IMG/VR virus record: IMGVR_UViG_2579778797_000009
Length of the DNA stretch: 13,823 nucleotides
Direction: 5' to 3' (one strand)
DNA from: a virus
Lineage: Duplodnaviria; Heunggongvirae; Uroviricota; Caudoviricetes
The translations under genes and the position numbers were made by a program. Under the pieces are notes generated by a model that was not told the origin of the DNA, made no database searches, and was given only the letters and a program-made list of their open reading frames with translations. Positions 2,766 through 9,300 of the stretch are shown here, in pieces. Positions within the stretch are counted from its first letter, which is position 1. Each line of letters starts with the position of its first letter.

Positions 2766-2813
2766 TTTTGCCCCATTTTTGCCCCTTTTGCAGCGTTTTG
2801 CCCCATTTTTGCC
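2766..2813. repeat. Phased direct repeats of a T-tract + GCCCC motif at the prophage end
   Basis: GCCCC(A) starts at 2770, 2781 and 2800, with a degenerate gccac at 2811, each preceded by TTTT(T/G). Spacing of 11, 19 and 11 bp is roughly helical. Function unknown. Confidence 0.4.
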
Positions 2814-2938
2814 ACCACAAAAAATCCTAAACCACACAAATCTAAAACCTACAAATTGCCCCCTTGGATACTTTTCAATAGAATCTGTTCCGGCTGGAAA
2901 TCATTCAATACTCGCACTATCGAAAGTTATCCAGCCAA

Positions 2939-2983
2939 CCGCAGCACGTCCTGCATACGTCGTGTCTGCGGTTTTTCTTTTTC
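2939..2983 (+). terminator. Orphan plus-strand intrinsic terminator inside the prophage end
   Basis: Stem ccgcag-cacg (2939-2948) / cgtg-t-ctgcgg (2961-2971) with a 12-nt loop, followed by tttttctttttc at 2972-2983. The T-run is on the plus strand only, so it terminates rightward transcription, antisense to the tail-fibre genes. Confidence 0.5.
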
Positions 2984-2985
2984 GC

Positions 2986-3168
2986 TTACATTGTGTCTGG
3001 TTCTTCCGGCCACTCAATATCAGGTGCAGTTGATGTATCAACACGGTTCAACAACACCCGATACTTTTTCCATGCGGCCAGTAACGCTTTCTCTTCCTCC
3101 GTTGCGATTTCCAGCTCAACAACAGTCTGAACGTACCGGGAACAGCCTCCTTCAGAGCTTGAAGGATA
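2986..3168 (-). pseudogene. tfa: Remnant of the tail fibre assembly gene tfa (C-terminal about 45 codons recognisable)
   Basis: The 60 sense codons directly after the stf stop, in the same frame, translate [60 protein letters not shown]. The ...[23 protein letters not shown]... block matches the recalled conserved C-terminus of lambdoid Tfa (e.g. TfaR). No start codon or N-terminal part is present. Confidence 0.6.
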
Positions 3169-5658
3169 TCAATGTTCGCTTCCTGTTAACTGCCGGACAA
3201 GTGCAACCAGTTCGCTTACCTGATTTTCCAGAGTGCTGATCCGGGTGTCTGCTGTTGCCAGATTTTCACGTAGCGTTGTGTTTTCCTCTTCCAGCGCGGT
3301 AACGCGATCATCTGTTTCACGGGCGACCTGAACAAGTAAACCCGTCACGGCGGCGTAGTCAACATTAAGATAGCGCGTTTCTTCGCGTAGCTCGTTGCCG
3401 TCAACGGTCGGACCTTGTAACGCTTCACCGTAATGAGTAAACGATCCCACAGCTTCCGGTAGCGCCTCCATTACCTCCTGAGCGATAACGCCAGCGTAAG
3501 GTAGTCCGTTTTCCTTAAGGGTATAAGTGTACCCGTTCATTTTGCGGATGGCTTCAGTTGCATCACCTATAACCTGAATGTTGTCCTTCAGATCACGATC
3601 AGATGATTGGTTTATCGTTTCGCATGTAATGTGACCAGACGCTTTAAGATTTTTTACATCAAGTCTGTCGTTTGCAAAATTATATGAAATTGCGGTGCTG
3701 GTGCTTCCGGCATCATCATAATCGCTTTTATGAATAAACCAGTTTCCACCATTAGCAATGAGAGTATAAGTAGGCGTGTTAGCCGGGCGATCTGTTTCAT
3801 TAAATCTTATTGCTGGGTTAGCGCTCCTTATTTGTAAAGGTTTTTCAACCGTGGATTTCAGTATCGCACTATCTACAATTAAATTACCTTCTGAGTTAAT
3901 GTTTAGATATTTTGAAGCACCAGTTGAACCATCGTATGTAAACCTTATTGTTAATTGACCTGGCTCATTTGATAAAGTCTCAACATACATATCAGCACCA
4001 AGACGCACAGTGCTGTCAGTTGCTAACAGTCTTGTATGGAGAATACCACTAGATGTGTATGTATTGGTCGAATCACTATATCTATCAAGAAATAGACTGT
4101 TAAGTTGAGGGCTATTGCTCCTGCCTAATCCAAGATTCGTTCTGGCACCATCAATAGTTGCCGCACCAGTACCTCCGGCCGCGATCGAAAGCGGAATCCA
4201 TTCGCTATTCTCTGCATCGTAATAACCCCATGTTCCTGAATCGTAGATACTAAAAAATTTGCTTGCATTTTGACAATATACGCGTGTATTACCTGTTAGT
4301 TGAGTAAGCCTGTCCACTTCATCTTTTCTTGCGTGACGCGTCCACTGCGGGCCTATTGTCGGATTCCAGCGATAAGTATAAAGCGAGCGCGTAGCCCATC
4401 CCTGAAATACACCTGTATACGCTGGTGTTCCATCTACCTGACTAATAAACCCCGTAAGACTGCTTTCACCGGATGCAATCGATGGAAAGCCTTTTGCATT
4501 ACTCATAATGCGCATAAATCCGATATACCCTGATGGGTTGCCGGAAATATCAGGACAATCACGCGGGGCTGAGCCAAGACCGATATTATCGCCAACAATT
4601 ACTTGCGCCTGGTTGCGATAATTAAGTGCGTCCGCTGCAGATTTCGCCGCGTTTGTTTCACTGGATTTAGCATTAGTTTCGCTGGCTTTAGCGTTTGTTT
4701 CGCTGCTCTTTGCTGCTGCCTCGCTATTTTTCGCGTTGGTTTCTGATTTTTTGGCTGCTGTCGCGGAGTTTGCCGATGCAGTTTGTGAGGCCGCTGCCGC
4801 CTGTGCGCTGTTATCCGCATTCGTCTCAGACGTTTTTGCGGCCTTCGCGGAATTTCCTGCCGCCGTTGCCGAGGAAGCTGCACTACTGGCACTTGATGAT
4901 GCGTTCGTTTCTGATGATTTCGCTGCCTCTTTTGAGGCCGCCGCATCCCGGGCTGAGGTGGCAGCTTCTGACGCTTTCGTGGTCGCGGTGGATGCAGAAG
5001 TGGCTGCAGATTTTTGTGACGCTGCAGCATTCGTTTCTGACGTTTTCGCCGCACCGGCACTGGTAGCCGCCGCGCTTTTTGAGGACTCTGCAGCGGCAGC
5101 ACTTTTTGATGCTTCAGTAGCCTTTGTTGATGCCGTTCCTGCGCTGGAAGACGCTGACTGAGCCGACGTCGCGGCCTGCCCGGCTGATGTGCTGGCTGCA
5201 CGTGCTGAGCCTGCAGCATCAGTCGCATGGGTTGCCGCCTCACGGGCTGATGTGCCGGCATCGCTGGCTGACTTCTTCGCGGCTGCCGTGTTCTGTTCCA
5301 CTGCGGACGCGTTACGCGCCACCTCTTCCACCATCAGTTCAAAGCGGCGCAGTGCCTCCGGACGGGCATCATCCTCCGTCATGGCACCGAGAAAATCATT
5401 CAGTGTGCCCGGCTTTGAGTCCTCATATACGGTGATAATCCCGGCGTGTGACGGCGGGAATCCCTCCACCAACAGACTGACGCTGTACTGACCATACTCG
5501 ACGTCCATTGTGTAACGCCCGGCTTCATCCGGGTTTTCTGAGGCCACTGTGTTCACCACCACCGTGGTGCTGTTGCGCCTGGCCTTTAGCTGAATGGTGC
5601 AGTTTTGTATCGGCTTACCTGCGCCATCTTTCAGTACACCTGAAATCCGTACTGCCAT
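3169..5658 (-). CDS. stf: Side tail fibre protein, mosaic: lambda Stf-like N-terminus, Ala/Ser/Thr-rich repeat shaft, distinct distal domain, C-terminal intramolecular chaperone (peptidase S74-like) domain; 829 aa
   Basis: ATG at 5658 with a GGGGGGA Shine-Dalgarno. N-terminus MAVRISGVLKDGAGKPIQNCTIQLKARRNSTTVVVNTV... resembles recalled lambda Stf; repeated K(S/T)SETNA motifs across about residues 105-330; C-terminal 144 aa begin SDRDLKDNIQVIGDATEAIRKMNGYTYTLKENG..., the signature of self-cleaving fibre chaperone domains. Stop TGA at 3169-3171. Confidence 0.85.
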   Translation of the reverse strand: MAVRISGVLKDGAGKPIQNCTIQLKARRNSTTVVVNTVASENPDEAGRYTMDVEYGQYSVSLLVEGFPPSHAGIITVYEDSKPGTLNDFLGAMTEDDARPEALRRFELMVEEVARNASAVEQNTAAAKKSASDAGTSAREAATHATDAAGSARAASTSAGQAATSAQSASSSAGTASTKATEASKSAAAAESSKSAAATSAGAAKTSETNAAASQKSAATSASTATTKASEAATSARDAAASKEAAKSSETNASSSASSAASSATAAGNSAKAAKTSETNADNSAQAAAASQTASANSATAAKKSETNAKNSEAAAKSSETNAKASETNAKSSETNAAKSAADALNYRNQAQVIVGDNIGLGSAPRDCPDISGNPSGYIGFMRIMSNAKGFPSIASGESSLTGFISQVDGTPAYTGVFQGWATRSLYTYRWNPTIGPQWTRHARKDEVDRLTQLTGNTRVYCQNASKFFSIYDSGTWGYYDAENSEWIPLSIAAGGTGAATIDGARTNLGLGRSNSPQLNSLFLDRYSDSTNTYTSSGILHTRLLATDSTVRLGADMYVETLSNEPGQLTIRFTYDGSTGASKYLNINSEGNLIVDSAILKSTVEKPLQIRSANPAIRFNETDRPANTPTYTLIANGGNWFIHKSDYDDAGSTSTAISYNFANDRLDVKNLKASGHITCETINQSSDRDLKDNIQVIGDATEAIRKMNGYTYTLKENGLPYAGVIAQEVMEALPEAVGSFTHYGEALQGPTVDGNELREETRYLNVDYAAVTGLLVQVARETDDRVTALEEENTTLRENLATADTRISTLENQVSELVALVRQLTGSEH

Positions 5659-6389: not shown

Positions 6390-9300
6390 TCAGCTGATAC
6401 TGATGCCTGCGGTGGCTTTCTTCATCACCACAACCAGCAAATCGCTGATACTTGCTGTGGGATACCAGTCATTTACCAGCCATGCTGACACCGAAAACTC
6501 CAGCGTCGTGTGACCGTGACCGGCAGGCATATCAATAACGCCACTGTAAATCAGCGTATTATCCAGCGCGGTACGGTTATAAATTTCAGCACCGTTTTTC
6601 CGCACTATCAGACGGCATGAGGAGTAAATATCAGTATGCTCTCTCTCATGTTTAGCGCCGCTGAATGCCACCGCCGGAATAACAATCTGCCGGTCAAACG
6701 GCTGATCGTCATAAATCCTGACGGTAATGGTCCCTGATGGCCACCGCTCCGGTGCCCGGGAGTCCCGCGGGAAAGCCTTACCCACTGTTTTGACAATATC
6801 GCCTTCAATCTGGTTGGCTGACAGTTTCCCTTTAATCTGACAGTTCTCATTTATCGTAACGTTGTTGAGCGTCCCGGCGTTCGCATTCACACTGCCACTG
6901 ATATCCGCATTTTTAGCGGTCAGCTTTCCGTCCGGTGTCAGGGAAAAGGCCGGAGGATTGCCGCCGCTGGTAATGGTGGGGGCCGTCAGGCGCTTCAGGA
7001 ACACTTCATTCATGAATATCTGATCACCCTGACCAACAAACATCGGTTTTGTGTTGCCATTCGCAGGATTAATCATCGCAATCCTGTCTGCCGCCAGCAG
7101 CACCTGACTCTGCATGCCGTCAGGGGTGTTCTCAATACCGGCACCAATACCCGCGATATAAAGGCGTCCGTCCTGCATCTGCTGCAGCTTCACAGCCCAC
7201 ATGCTGTTCAGGTTATTATTTGTATCAACCTGAACCTTCTGTATCTGCTGAATTGCAGCACTCTGGTCTTCCAGTTTCTTATTGACGGTCTGCGTGATTT
7301 CATTGCTGACATCCGTAATGGACGTCCTGATTTCAGCCAGGTCAGGCGCAAGCTGACCGTTATCAATCTGCGTCCACAGCTCCTGAGCCAGATGGGTTTT
7401 CCCTATCTCGCCTTTGAAAAAATCCAGATAACCGGATGCATCATCACTCGGCTGACCAACAGCCTCCACGAATGCCGATTTGCCAACGGTGTTCACACTG
7501 CGGATATAAAAGTAATAATCATGGCCCGGTTTGATATTGATACTGGCGGCTATCCAGTACAGCGCCGTACCAAGATAGCGTGCTGTGGTTTCAACCTGCC
7601 TGATATCCGCAATCCGCTTTTCCGAGAACCAGAACTCAAACTGTACCGTCGGATCATAAACCGCAAGATGCGGCGTGGCGGTTATCTGAAAATAGCCCGG
7701 TGTCAGCTCAATCCGAGACGGCGCTGCCGGTGCGGCAATCCGGAACGATACCGATGCCGGATCGCCCTGCTGTCCCCACGCATTTACCGCCCGGACTGTC
7801 AGCCTGTAGTTCCCCAGCGCCAGTTGCGTGAAGCGGTATGTAGTTTCCGTCGTCCGGGCCGTGCTGACCAGCCGCTCACTGCCGTCATCCGCTGCCACGG
7901 TCAGGCGAAGCATAAAGCTCACCCCCTTCACCACCTTCGGCGTGTCCCAGCGCGCCAGCACCTGATATTCCCCGCTGTCTGCGGTGACTTCGGCAGTCAG
8001 GTGCTGCACCGCTGGCGGCGTGACACCATTCACCGTGCCGCTCTGGTCGCCGTCAAAGTGCGCCCCGTTATCCACGATGGCCTCTTTTTCCGGCACATGC
8101 TGCACGGCGGTGATGGCATACGTGCCGTCGTCGTTCTCACGGATACTCACGCAGCGAAACAGTCGCTGGCGCAGCGTCGGCAGCTTCAGCCCCCATACGC
8201 TGTATTCAGCAACACCGTCAGGAACACGGCTCACTTTTACCTTCACGCCGTCGGTGGCGGACTGGACCTCCACGCTGACCGGATTGCCATTTCCGTCAAC
8301 CAGGCTTATCAGCGTGGTACCGGAGGATGGCAGCGTGATTTCACGGTCGAGCGTCAGCGTCCGGGTCTGGCTGTTCACCGCCAGCACGCGCCCACCGGTG
8401 CTGATACCCGCATAGTCATCATCACAGATTTCAATGACATCGCCCGGCACATGGCGAAGCCCTTCTGCGCCCACGCTGAAGTCCACGGTCTGCGTTTCCA
8501 GCAGTTCTGTTTTAATCAGCCACAGCCCGGCGCGGTGTGCCTGCCCCCGGCTGGTACAGCCAAAGGCATCCATCTTCGTGACATTACGACCATAACGGGC
8601 AATGGCCTGCGTATCTTCAACAAGCTCTGTCGCCGTCTCCCAGCCGTTGTCCGGGTCAATCCAGTTCACCTCAACGGCATTATGGCGGACCTTCAGGGCG
8701 CTGAAACTGTAGCGGAACGGCGCGCCATCATCCGGCATCACCACATTACTGCGGTTATAGGTCCACACCTTATCCGACGGCCGGTCCTGCACGAACGTCA
8801 GCGTCTGCCCGTTCCATACCGGCATACAGCGCATCGCCGAGCAGAAATCACTGAGCACATCCCACGCCTTACGCTGTGTGGTCAGCCAGGCATTACAGGT
8901 GATGCGCGGCTCCGTGCCGCCAAAGCCGTCCGGCACCGACTGGTCGCAGTACTGGCCGATGACATACAGCGCCCATTTATCCACATCCGCCGCACCAAGA
9001 CGTTTCCCCATGCCGTAGCGCGGGTGGGTCAGCATATCCCACAGACACCATGCCATGTTGTTGCTGTATGCTGGCTTAAACGTTCCGTCCCAGATACCGC
9101 TGTATTGCCGCGTCTGCGGGTTATAGTTCGACGGCACCTGCAGAATGCGCCCGCGAAGATGATAATTACGGCTCACCTGCTGGCTGCCGAACTGCTCCGA
9201 GTCCACCTGTACGCCGACCAGTGCCGTGTTCGGGTAGCACTGTTTCACATCGATGATTTCGGTGTATGACGACCAGAGCGTTTTGTTCTGCAGCTGGTCT

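Follow-up and report, generated by a model that had tools for sequence, protein, structure and literature searches.

A tfa remnant in frame behind the stop codon of a side tail fibre gene with a Peptidase_S74 module

The stf gene and the sequence behind its stop codon

The DNA analysed here, referred to as the window, is a stretch of 13,823 nucleotides from a virus of the Caudoviricetes (IMG/VR record IMGVR_UViG_2579778797_000009). It belongs to an E. coli prophage and bears a side tail fibre gene, stf, on the minus strand. As originally predicted, the reading frame of stf continues past its TGA stop (3169-3171) for 60 sense codons, running from 3168 down to 2989, before a TAA closes it at 2986-2988, and our reanalysis confirmed these coordinates. 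The locus comprises the following features:

3169..5658, minus strand: stf, side tail fibre gene, 829 aa (open reading frame and translation)
3172..3603, minus strand: Peptidase_S74 intramolecular chaperone module, stf aa 686-829 (Pfam and alignments)
3169..3171, minus strand: stf stop TGA, next base T (sequence; compared across 106 loci)
3133..3168, minus strand: spacer of 12 codons in the stf/tfa frame, neither S74-like nor Tfa-like (profile matches start later)
2989..3132, minus strand: tfa remnant proper, codons 13-60, corresponding to lambda Tfa residues 147-194, the conserved C-terminal helical domain (Pfam, blastp)
2986..2988, minus strand: TAA, the native tfa-type stop closing the remnant (aligns with the intact tfa stop in HK630/lambda)
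2939..2971, minus strand: GC-rich hairpin CCGCAGACACG...CGTGCTGCGG, directly past the remnant (predicted stem)

The fibre protein opens with a lambda-type N-terminal anchor (phage_tail_N, aa 1-134; Pfam PF08400, E=1.8e-70), which is followed by an Ala/Ser-rich repeat shaft, a receptor-binding middle part and the C-terminal Peptidase_S74 module. Pfam PF13884 matches aa 686-737 (E=1.6e-14, 54.3 bits against a cut-off of 22), and the module holds an SSDRDLKDNI motif and a terminal coiled coil. It could be aligned to the distal subunit of the phage S16 long tail fibre (PDB 6F45_A) across NQSSDRDLKDNI / NVSSDRRIKKDI; in this alignment SSDRDLKDNI pairs with SSDRRIKKDI, and the conserved Ser...Lys motif near the C-terminus is present. 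Like S16 6F45, the fibres of mEp044 and MagusPhagus end in an S74 chaperone as the window stf does, and the stf C-terminus is 75-81% identical to the C-termini of these two fibres, with MagusPhagus at 81%. Among the fibres compared, aa 1-509 of stf are common to the stf of mEp460, aa 510-644 are shared only with PhiR70_1, and aa 645-829 are common to all of the S74 fibres. A C-terminal Peptidase_S74 chaperone is also found in the K1F endosialidase and in T5 pb1, and S74 domains release their C-terminal chaperone fragment by autoproteolysis once folded. By analogy, the S74 chaperone of stf would be expected to be cut off after trimerisation. The presence of this module in stf explains why the fibre locus has no intact tfa.

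In tail fibre assembly proteins (Tfa), the N-terminal domain is variable and binds the fibre, and the C-terminal domain is helical, conserved and responsible for trimerisation (PMC9608196). The original prediction that the 60 codons encode the C-terminal block of Tfa was borne out by both profile and alignment searches: residues 13-57 match positions 86-130 of the 131 positions of Caudo_TAP (Pfam PF02413, E=1.7e-21, 77.1 bits against a cut-off of 22.1), and they are 78% identical to residues 147-191 of lambda-type Tfa and 76% identical to residues 147-191 of K-12 TfaR (blastp). PHROG tail fibre assembly families also match the remnant, with E down to 1e-19, as do residues 133-175 of phage Mu Tfa (PDB 5YVQ_B, E=2.5e-7), and at the DNA level positions 3008-3131 are 84% identical to K-12 tfaR. 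This likeness is restricted to residues 13-60 of the stretch, with profile matches beginning at residue 13 or 14. Positions 1-85 of the Caudo_TAP profile, its N-terminal part, have no counterpart in the 60 codons, where just 12 non-homologous codons precede the C-domain, and the remnant lacks the approximately 145-residue (130-150 aa) variable N-terminal fibre-binding domain.

The further claim that the stretch has neither a start codon nor N-terminal Tfa sequence is essentially right, as in-frame ATG occurs only as the last codon and GTG or TTG only at codons 41-43, from which a peptide of at most 20 aa would result. In the complete genome of mEp460, which has the same junction, the remnant is the sole Tfa-like sequence, and no Tfa N-terminal similarity was found anywhere in that genome. 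Intact tfa genes (lambda Tfa, Rac TfaR and Mu gpU, 5YVQ) have the same order and strand relative to the fibre gene, but they possess the N-terminal fibre-binding domain, a start and a ribosome-binding arrangement; because the window remnant is without all three, it cannot act as a two-domain Tfa. We consider it probable, at roughly 85%, that what lies in the 180 nt behind the stf stop is the non-functional 3′ end of a former tfa gene, which retains only the C-terminal helical domain after 12 unrelated spacer codons, an estimate that covers the whole explanation, including the history of the joint given below. Neither stf nor the remnant had a match in NCBIfam, and the antisense ORFs at 2856-3239 and 2779-3033 (plus strand) and a 47-aa ORF at 2901-3044 (minus strand) had no family matches in PHROGs or NCBIfam.

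Among 106 loci with the same flanks, the stf stop codon is TGA in 104, TAA in 2 and a sense codon in none. The spacer behind it holds a predicted 7-bp hairpin, TCCTTCA-AGCTC-TGAAGGA, at 3148-3166, and an AAGGAGG at 3146-3152, 17 nt past the stop. Across 104 sequences, the first 17 codons past the stop (3118-3168, spacer included) contain 6 nonsynonymous and 2 synonymous variants, small numbers that equal the neutral expectation, and the linker haplotypes fall into two amino-acid forms at about 50% each, S-to-P and R-to-W changes included. No source for the 36-46 nt spacer was recovered by blastn-short against all fetched loci or by distant blastn against phage and plasmid collections; a scan of species-representative genome contigs with a spacer 22-mer gave 0 matches, and Smith-Waterman comparison of the spacer with the 5′ 440 nt of lambda tfa and tfaR gave p=0.1-0.7 (2000 shuffles). 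Inspection by eye suggested two conceivable origins, duplication of an internal 30-nt segment and descent from codons 113-126 of tfa, but neither had statistical support. Pin genes adjoin tfa in Rac-type prophages (L010, K-12), for which reason a DNA-invertase (Hin/Gin/Pin) crossover site at TATCCTTCAAGC was considered and rejected; judged by eye against the site consensus sequences, the AAACC-NN-GGTTT core is missing and the arms stand 5 nt apart rather than 2.

Distribution and origin of the joint

The same 171-bp stf-stop/remnant junction was present in 805 of 5426 complete E. coli genomes, at 1380 places that are all at least 90% identical, the population counts being from exact-pattern searches in which copies mutated within the pattern go unseen. 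Three phage isolates, mEp460, Ayreon and PhiR70_1, carry the junction too. On sister-genome junctions, NCBI PGAP labels the remnant as a pseudogene, ‘tail fiber assembly protein; incomplete; missing N-terminus’ (AM341_RS11330, ACHP5K_RS15205), and this feature in two of the loci (L001 and L002) corresponds to approximately 2986-3120 of the window. The PGAP partial tail fiber assembly pseudogenes of E. coli prophages are the same block in the same place, right behind the fibre gene, and nothing material sets them apart from the remnant described here. We take the tfa fragments of K-12 cryptic prophages, tfaD, tfaX and tfaS, to be of the same kind. The remnant is an ordinary, common pseudogene that is annotated in databases already, and as one that pipelines already flag it has little value as a discovery; we found no paper on the stf-stop/remnant junction. 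For annotation, the TGA is best taken as the end of stf, with the remnant entered as a pseudogene.

The original prediction had proposed looking in related prophages for an intact ancestral stf-tfa arrangement, and this was found: HK630, which is lambda-type, has an intact stf-tfa, and the K-12 Rac prophage has stfR-tfaR at the same chromosomal locus. The S74 fibre genes of mEp044 and MagusPhagus, two non-lambdoid phages, have no tfa behind them: they end in ...LTGSEK-TAA, after which comes a terminator of their own. In the window, the S74 module is instead joined to an stf N-terminus of lambda type, and the tfa remnant comes next. DNA identity between these two fibres and the window ends at the Glu828 codon, within 6 nt of the stf stop. 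In 56 loci, a block reaching from about 300 nt before the stop to about 60 nt behind it is near-invariant, while the loci differ farther upstream, in the receptor-binding part, and farther downstream.

Judged from these alignments, the junction is a recombination scar between an S74 fibre module and a former tfa. As the same joint lies behind fibres with different receptor-binding middle parts, the scar goes back to a single old event, separate from the one that brought this particular tip, and the junction has since spread through E. coli prophages and undergone further recombination. The remnant had been predicted to be the footprint of the recombination that introduced the present fibre tip; the joint of S74 module and former tfa upholds the first part of that proposal, while the tie to this tip fails, given that the joint is found in 805 of 5426 genomes and with differing receptor-binding parts.

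We propose that, in an ancestral lambdoid prophage, a fibre end with its own Peptidase_S74 chaperone was joined onto the resident stf-tfa locus. The left crossover would have fallen somewhere in stf and the right joint no more than about 6 nt from where stf now stops, with loss of the N-terminal three quarters of tfa, the tip-binding domain. The phase with stf may have arisen by chance, or the joint may have been made at shared Ser-Glu(-His) codons. The chance of a remnant being in phase is 1/3 and that of 12-17 spacer codons being free of stops is about 0.45-0.6, giving a joint value of about 0.15-0.2, and the in-frame placement of the remnant is statistically unremarkable. The open in-phase frame would be a by-product whose Tfa-like codons have been repeatedly refreshed from functional tfa alleles, and no product beyond background UGA leakage would be expected. 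Read this way, the locus illustrates how lambdoid host-range modules are built, with an intramolecular-chaperone fibre end having rendered a separate chaperone gene redundant. Side fibres are dispensable in the laboratory, as reportedly shown by lambda PaPa, and the viability of mEp460 and similar phages is no proof of fibre assembly without Tfa.

Recombination and damage at the remnant

Among 57 loci the remnant shows 12 distinct 3′ endings, rising to 18 when 106 loci are compared, and 5 of the endings are paired with both spacer haplotypes, which constitutes a four-gamete violation. Its downstream contexts are similarly varied (14 distinct contexts in 50 loci). The window copy, which ends in EEPDTM, differs from sister copies only by point substitutions, its ending and its downstream flank. 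Because the tfa 3′ block kept in the remnant has about 85-90% DNA identity to the intact tfa of co-resident prophages, it keeps serving as crossover homology, and the pattern of endings and flanks marks the remnant as an active crossover zone that re-links the fibre module to varied downstream modules. The leftover block still provides the shared homology by which fibre modules are joined to different downstream modules.

Of 100 complete copies of the remnant, 98 keep the frame open as far as the native tfa-type stop. We attribute this to import from functional alleles together with low de novo divergence; selection for translation would look alike, and since variation in the Tfa-like part is imported from functional alleles, dN/dS is uninformative there. 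Damaged copies also occur, with the remnant frameshifted in two loci (L020 and L107), interrupted by an IS in a third (L009) and reduced to deletion derivatives in two others (L010 and L062), and these copies hint that the remnant is dispensable. Two candidates for the remnant in other contexts (P0021 and P0012) proved to be the same junction, in the first case with an IS inserted and in the second as a deletion derivative. The deletions in L010 and L062 both end at GATATCC, but the search patterns could only recover such end points, and we do not claim the motif as a hot spot.

Other readings of the segment

Past the remnant, the hairpin at 2939-2971 is followed on the plus strand by TTTTTCTTTTT (2972-2982), on account of which it looks like a terminator for convergent transcription; a simple terminator scan did not call it. 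Lambda-type phages have the same element after their intact tfa; the HK630/lambda copy shows base changes in both arms, and the element matches K-12 Rac at 91% (locus positions 8726-8769). A conserved GC-rich hairpin behind remnant and intact tfa alike is what would be seen if the segment were kept for a non-coding role, whether as an sRNA like those of Rfam family IS009 or as a 3′ UTR and terminator element in the late/stf transcript, and the 281-nt region does fold better than shuffles (z=-3.8). However, the hairpin lies outside the remnant and would be retained regardless, and there is no promoter-like site ahead of the segment on the minus strand. The Rfam IS009 model (RF02111) aligns along its whole length to minus-strand positions 3029-3229 with E=6.6e-19, but the score of 81.6 bits is below the family gathering score of 117 and the match is missing from a gathering-threshold scan. 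The strong part of this alignment is the tfa-homologous block, the same tfa 3′ sequence, while the 5′ half of the model aligns poorly, onto the S74 end and the spacer. The model consensus itself reads as tfa coding sequence on the sense strand, and on its sequence the family resembles part of the tfa gene more than an RNA gene that has been demonstrated. IS009 matches in prophages are likely to be tfa coding sequence as well. We regard a non-coding role as improbable.

Programmed UGA readthrough is known from phage Qbeta, where it extends the coat protein to the A1 protein, and the window resembles Qbeta in that a UGA lies between two coding segments sharing one frame, in a region of phage structural genes. 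Readthrough of the stf stop had been raised as a speculative possibility. On this reading, some ribosomes would decode the UGA as Trp, adding the spacer and the Tfa C-terminal trimerisation domain to the S74 chaperone and aiding trimerisation. UGA is the leakiest E. coli stop, and in certain contexts its decoding as Trp reaches the percent range (PMC11126739). The Tfa C-domain is a trimerisation module, as is the S74 coiled coil (PMC9608196), and the small hairpin at 3148-3166 begins 3 nt past the stop. If leakage gave a few percent of Stf a Tfa C-domain on the S74 chaperone, nucleating or speeding trimerisation, this would explain a remnant that is in phase and open in nearly all complete copies, but we think it very unlikely that it does.

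A T after the stop raises termination accuracy in E. coli, and the TGA-T context of stf is one that favours termination rather than a leaky one (PMC11126739). The tight stop TAA occurs at 2 of the 106 loci and a sense codon or fusion at none; the 6:2 ratio of nonsynonymous to synonymous linker variants (small numbers), with S-to-P and R-to-W at about 50%, gives no sign of coding constraint on the linker, and frameshifted and IS-disrupted copies occur. A remnant in phase with stf would be expected by chance with a probability of about 0.15-0.2. From what is known of the S74 family, the extension would hang on the fragment shed by autoproteolysis and hence lie outside the virion. The window differs from Qbeta in its stop context, a linker with no sign of conserved constraint, its TAA variants and an extension placed on a fragment that would be expected to be discarded. 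Functional readthrough is unsupported, with no hint of remnant translation, and for annotation an open in-frame stretch past a stop is no evidence for it.

Equally implausible is that the remnant is made alone, through an internal or non-canonical start or re-initiation, as a small Tfa of the C-domain only that acts as a generic oligomerisation helper. The AAGGAGG lies close behind the stf stop, but no ATG, GTG or TTG follows it within 4-12 nt in any frame, the earliest in-frame GTG or TTG is codon 41, with at most 20 aa remaining, and the N-terminal fibre-binding domain is missing from the window remnant and from the entire mEp460 genome. Short Tfa-C-terminal ORFs of 42-103 aa are numerous in PHROGs and the protein database, an 89-aa ATG-initiated form having 304 members; the feature behind stf is classed by PGAP as a pseudogene.

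Identity of the tfa-like sequence behind the side tail fibre gene

The tail genes lie on the minus strand (end of H, then M, L, K, I, J, lom and the side tail fibre gene stf), and the 3′ end of stf is followed by a second open stretch in the same frame.

Features at the 3′ end of stf (window positions, strand)
3169-5658, minus: stf, lambda-type side tail fibre gene, 829 codons
3169-3171, minus: stf stop codon, TGA
3168 down to 2989, minus: 60 sense codons after the TGA, in the stf frame
3133-3168, minus: spacer, the first 12 of these codons
within 3146-3166, minus: 7-bp hairpin TCCTTCA-AGCTC-TGAAGGA, directly past the stf stop
2986-2988, minus: TAA ending the remnant frame
2939-2971: GC-rich hairpin behind, and outside, the remnant

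In Pfam, the stf N-terminus is a prophage tail fibre N-terminal domain (E=1.8e-70) and the C-terminus a Peptidase_S74 ‘chaperone of endosialidase’ domain (amino acids 686-737, E=1.6e-14), whose SSDRDLKDNI motif aligns with the counterpart motif in the phage S16 fibre subunit 6F45_A. The sequence of residues 13-57 of the 60-codon stretch leaves no doubt that they represent the C-terminus of a tail fibre assembly (Tfa) protein. They cover positions 86-130 of the 131 in Pfam Caudo_TAP (E=1.7e-21), are 78% identical to residues 147-191 of lambda-type Tfa and 76% identical to K-12 TfaR, and match PHROG tail fibre assembly families and phage Mu Tfa (5YVQ_B residues 133-175). In Tfa, a variable N-domain specific to the fibre is combined with a conserved, helical C-terminal domain for trimerisation (PMC9608196). 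The original prediction of an in-frame Tfa C-terminal block without a start codon is thus borne out, as ATG occurs in this frame only as the last codon and GTG/TTG only at codons 41-43. The in-phase open frame itself is statistically unremarkable, with a chance of roughly 0.15-0.2 (1/3 for phase, times about 0.45-0.6 for 12-17 codons without a stop). The spacer resembles nothing in the Pfam, Tfa/TfaR, PHROG or Mu Tfa comparisons, and sequence comparisons found no source for the 36-46 nt between the stf stop and tfa-like DNA. Across 104 sequences, the stem of the 7-bp hairpin is invariant and its loop bears a common T/C polymorphism.

Intact arrangements, of the kind the original prediction called for, occur in K-12 Rac, which has stfR-tfaR and then pinR-ynaE-ynaM at the same place, and in the lambda-type phage HK630 (stf-tfa, then hairpin). 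The GC-rich hairpin also lies behind intact tfa in lambda-type phages; with its T-run on the plus strand, it is probably a terminator of convergent transcription.

Position, spread and age of the joint

Outside the lambda-type tail context, the closest S74 ends belong to the fibres of phages mEp044 and MagusPhagus, which finish ...ALVRQLTGSEK-TAA and are followed by unrelated sequence and a terminator of their own. DNA identity between these and the window ends at the Glu828 codon (GGAAGCGAA / CATTGATATCC) and tfa similarity starts again at about 3131-3132, which puts the predicted right-hand joint of the S74-installing event no more than about 6 nt from the stf stop. The last His codon of stf and its TGA may derive from either side. 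The sequence ...VASEHIAPLQDA.DLEIAT is found in intact Tfa proteins, and a joint at shared Ser-Glu(-His) codons, which we infer from one matching codon, would automatically place the remnant in the stf frame. Other short, truncated Tfa-like ORFs (P0020, P0024, P0031, P0036 and P0110), whose N-termini are unrelated, likewise begin their Tfa part at SEH. All of them join the conserved block at ...SEHIAPLQDA.DLEIAT, which suggests that truncation or exchange has recurred precisely where the Tfa domains meet. One such short ORF is ATG-initiated and 89 amino acids long, has 304 member sequences and ends in EEPDTM like the window.

A 171-bp probe across the stf stop (3090-3260) found 1380 sites with 90% identity or more, spread over 805 of 5426 complete E. 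coli genomes. In all of the matches listed, an S74 or tail-fibre protein is annotated with a ‘tail fiber assembly protein’ behind it, and in both records inspected this second feature is a PGAP pseudogene (‘incomplete; missing N-terminus’). The isolated phages mEp460, Ayreon and PhiR70_1 carry the junction, the remnant being the sole Tfa-like sequence in the complete mEp460 genome, and the protein database holds many 42-60-amino-acid entries with the remnant sequence, named ‘tail fiber assembly protein, partial’. The junction is therefore old, common and previously annotated, and the feature, a tfa 3′ pseudogene lying at a mosaic joint, is ordinary and already known from annotations in hundreds of genomes.

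At the protein level, stf amino acids 1-509 are common to the window fibre and mEp460, amino acids 510-644 (3727-4131) are shared only with PhiR70_1 among the fibres compared, and the S74 module (645-829) is common to all of them, indicating that receptor-binding cassettes, presumably the middle part, are swapped between two constant arms. Since the S74 module is common and the receptor-binding parts differ, the scar, one event with many descendants, is older than receptor-binding diversification and not a product of the event that brought the window's tip. The earlier description as a recombination scar was right in kind, a tfa 3′ remnant at a joint with an S74 end, but wrong in age and specificity, given its presence in 805/5426 genomes behind varied fibres.

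In 56 other junction loci, about 300 nt before the stf stop and about 60 nt after it form a near-invariant block, with different classes of DNA beyond it on both sides. Among 57 loci the remnant has 12 different C-terminal endings, and among 106 it has 18, including EEPDTM, AVPVME, A/TNPVRE, ALP and VAPIG; intact tfa alleles show the same variety. Each of five endings is seen with both spacer haplotypes, so that the four-gamete test is violated within at most 150 nt, and 50 loci show 14 different downstream contexts. The remnant is thus a mosaic, and its conserved tfa 3′ block works as a zone of crossover that links the fibre module to varied downstream DNA, which fits the two-domain organisation of Tfa (PMC9608196).

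Translation of the remnant and a non-coding alternative

It had also been speculated that readthrough of the stf UGA would append the remnant to the fibre chaperone; this is unsupported, and no evidence favours translation of the remnant. The sole fact fitting translation, an open frame in 98 of 100 complete copies, would be expected anyway, as the Tfa-like codons are probably imports from functional alleles that have diverged little de novo. Against it, 106 loci found with a pattern leaving the stop codon free have TGA in 104, TAA in two (metagenome contigs L068 and L087) and a sense codon in none. The following base is T, which in E. coli improves termination at TGA, the leakiest stop (PMC11126739). 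Variants counted over 3118-3168, which includes the spacer, number six nonsynonymous to two synonymous, small numbers that match the neutral expectation, and include S-to-P and R-to-W, each at ~50% frequency. A perfect AAGGAGG (3146-3152), overlapping the 3′ arm of the 7-bp hairpin, has no start codon behind it. The remnant carries an IS insertion in one locus and a 1-nt frameshift in two (L020 and L107; …WK[S/C]IGCC, 39 codons), the frameshift sitting on both spacer haplotypes, and two loci are deletion derivatives. In the Peptidase_S74 family the S74 fragment is removed by autoproteolysis, so an extension attached to it would presumably be lost.

The two deletion derivatives are independent: L010 (4030-4060) joins codon 5 of the tape-measure gene H to the remnant, and L062 (reverse strand, ~3735) joins the lom N-terminus. 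Both end inside GATATCC just past the stf-stop position, with 2-5 nt of microhomology, and the shared end points could be an artefact of the way these loci were retrieved.

A non-coding element, an Rfam IS009-type sRNA or terminator-related, is unlikely: the IS009 model aligns full-length to 3029-3229 (minus), but its 81.6 bits fall below the gathering score of 117, the GC-rich hairpin lies outside the remnant, and the IS009 consensus is essentially the tfa sense strand. What IS009 detects in prophages is therefore probably not an sRNA but a tfa gene or its remnant.

Prophage end and host flank

A lambdoid prophage located in the E. coli Rac locus has its right end in the window, which from position 2831 downwards is 98% identical to K-12.

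Host flank of the Rac prophage locus (window positions, strand)
383-503, minus: MicC sRNA (Rfam RF00121, 122 bits, full length)
728-1861, plus: ompN, adjoining MicC
within 1930-2436, plus: uspF

In K-12 Rac (L063 6975-8725), the tfaR stop is separated from the hairpin by pinR-ynaE-ynaM (about 1.75 kb); in the window (2977-2986), as in lambda, the hairpin comes immediately after the tfa stop. The block is either an insertion in Rac or a loss in the window. The window and K-12 Rac have 170 nt of prophage right-end DNA in common (2662-2831). Here, at 2765-2813 and just inside the ttcC attachment remnant, TTTTTGCCCC (minus strand: GGGGCAAAAA) is tandemly repeated about 4.8 times, and the repeats could be integrase arm-type binding sites. 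A 625-codon ATG-initiated ORF antisense inside gene J (7392-9269, plus) is most likely spurious.
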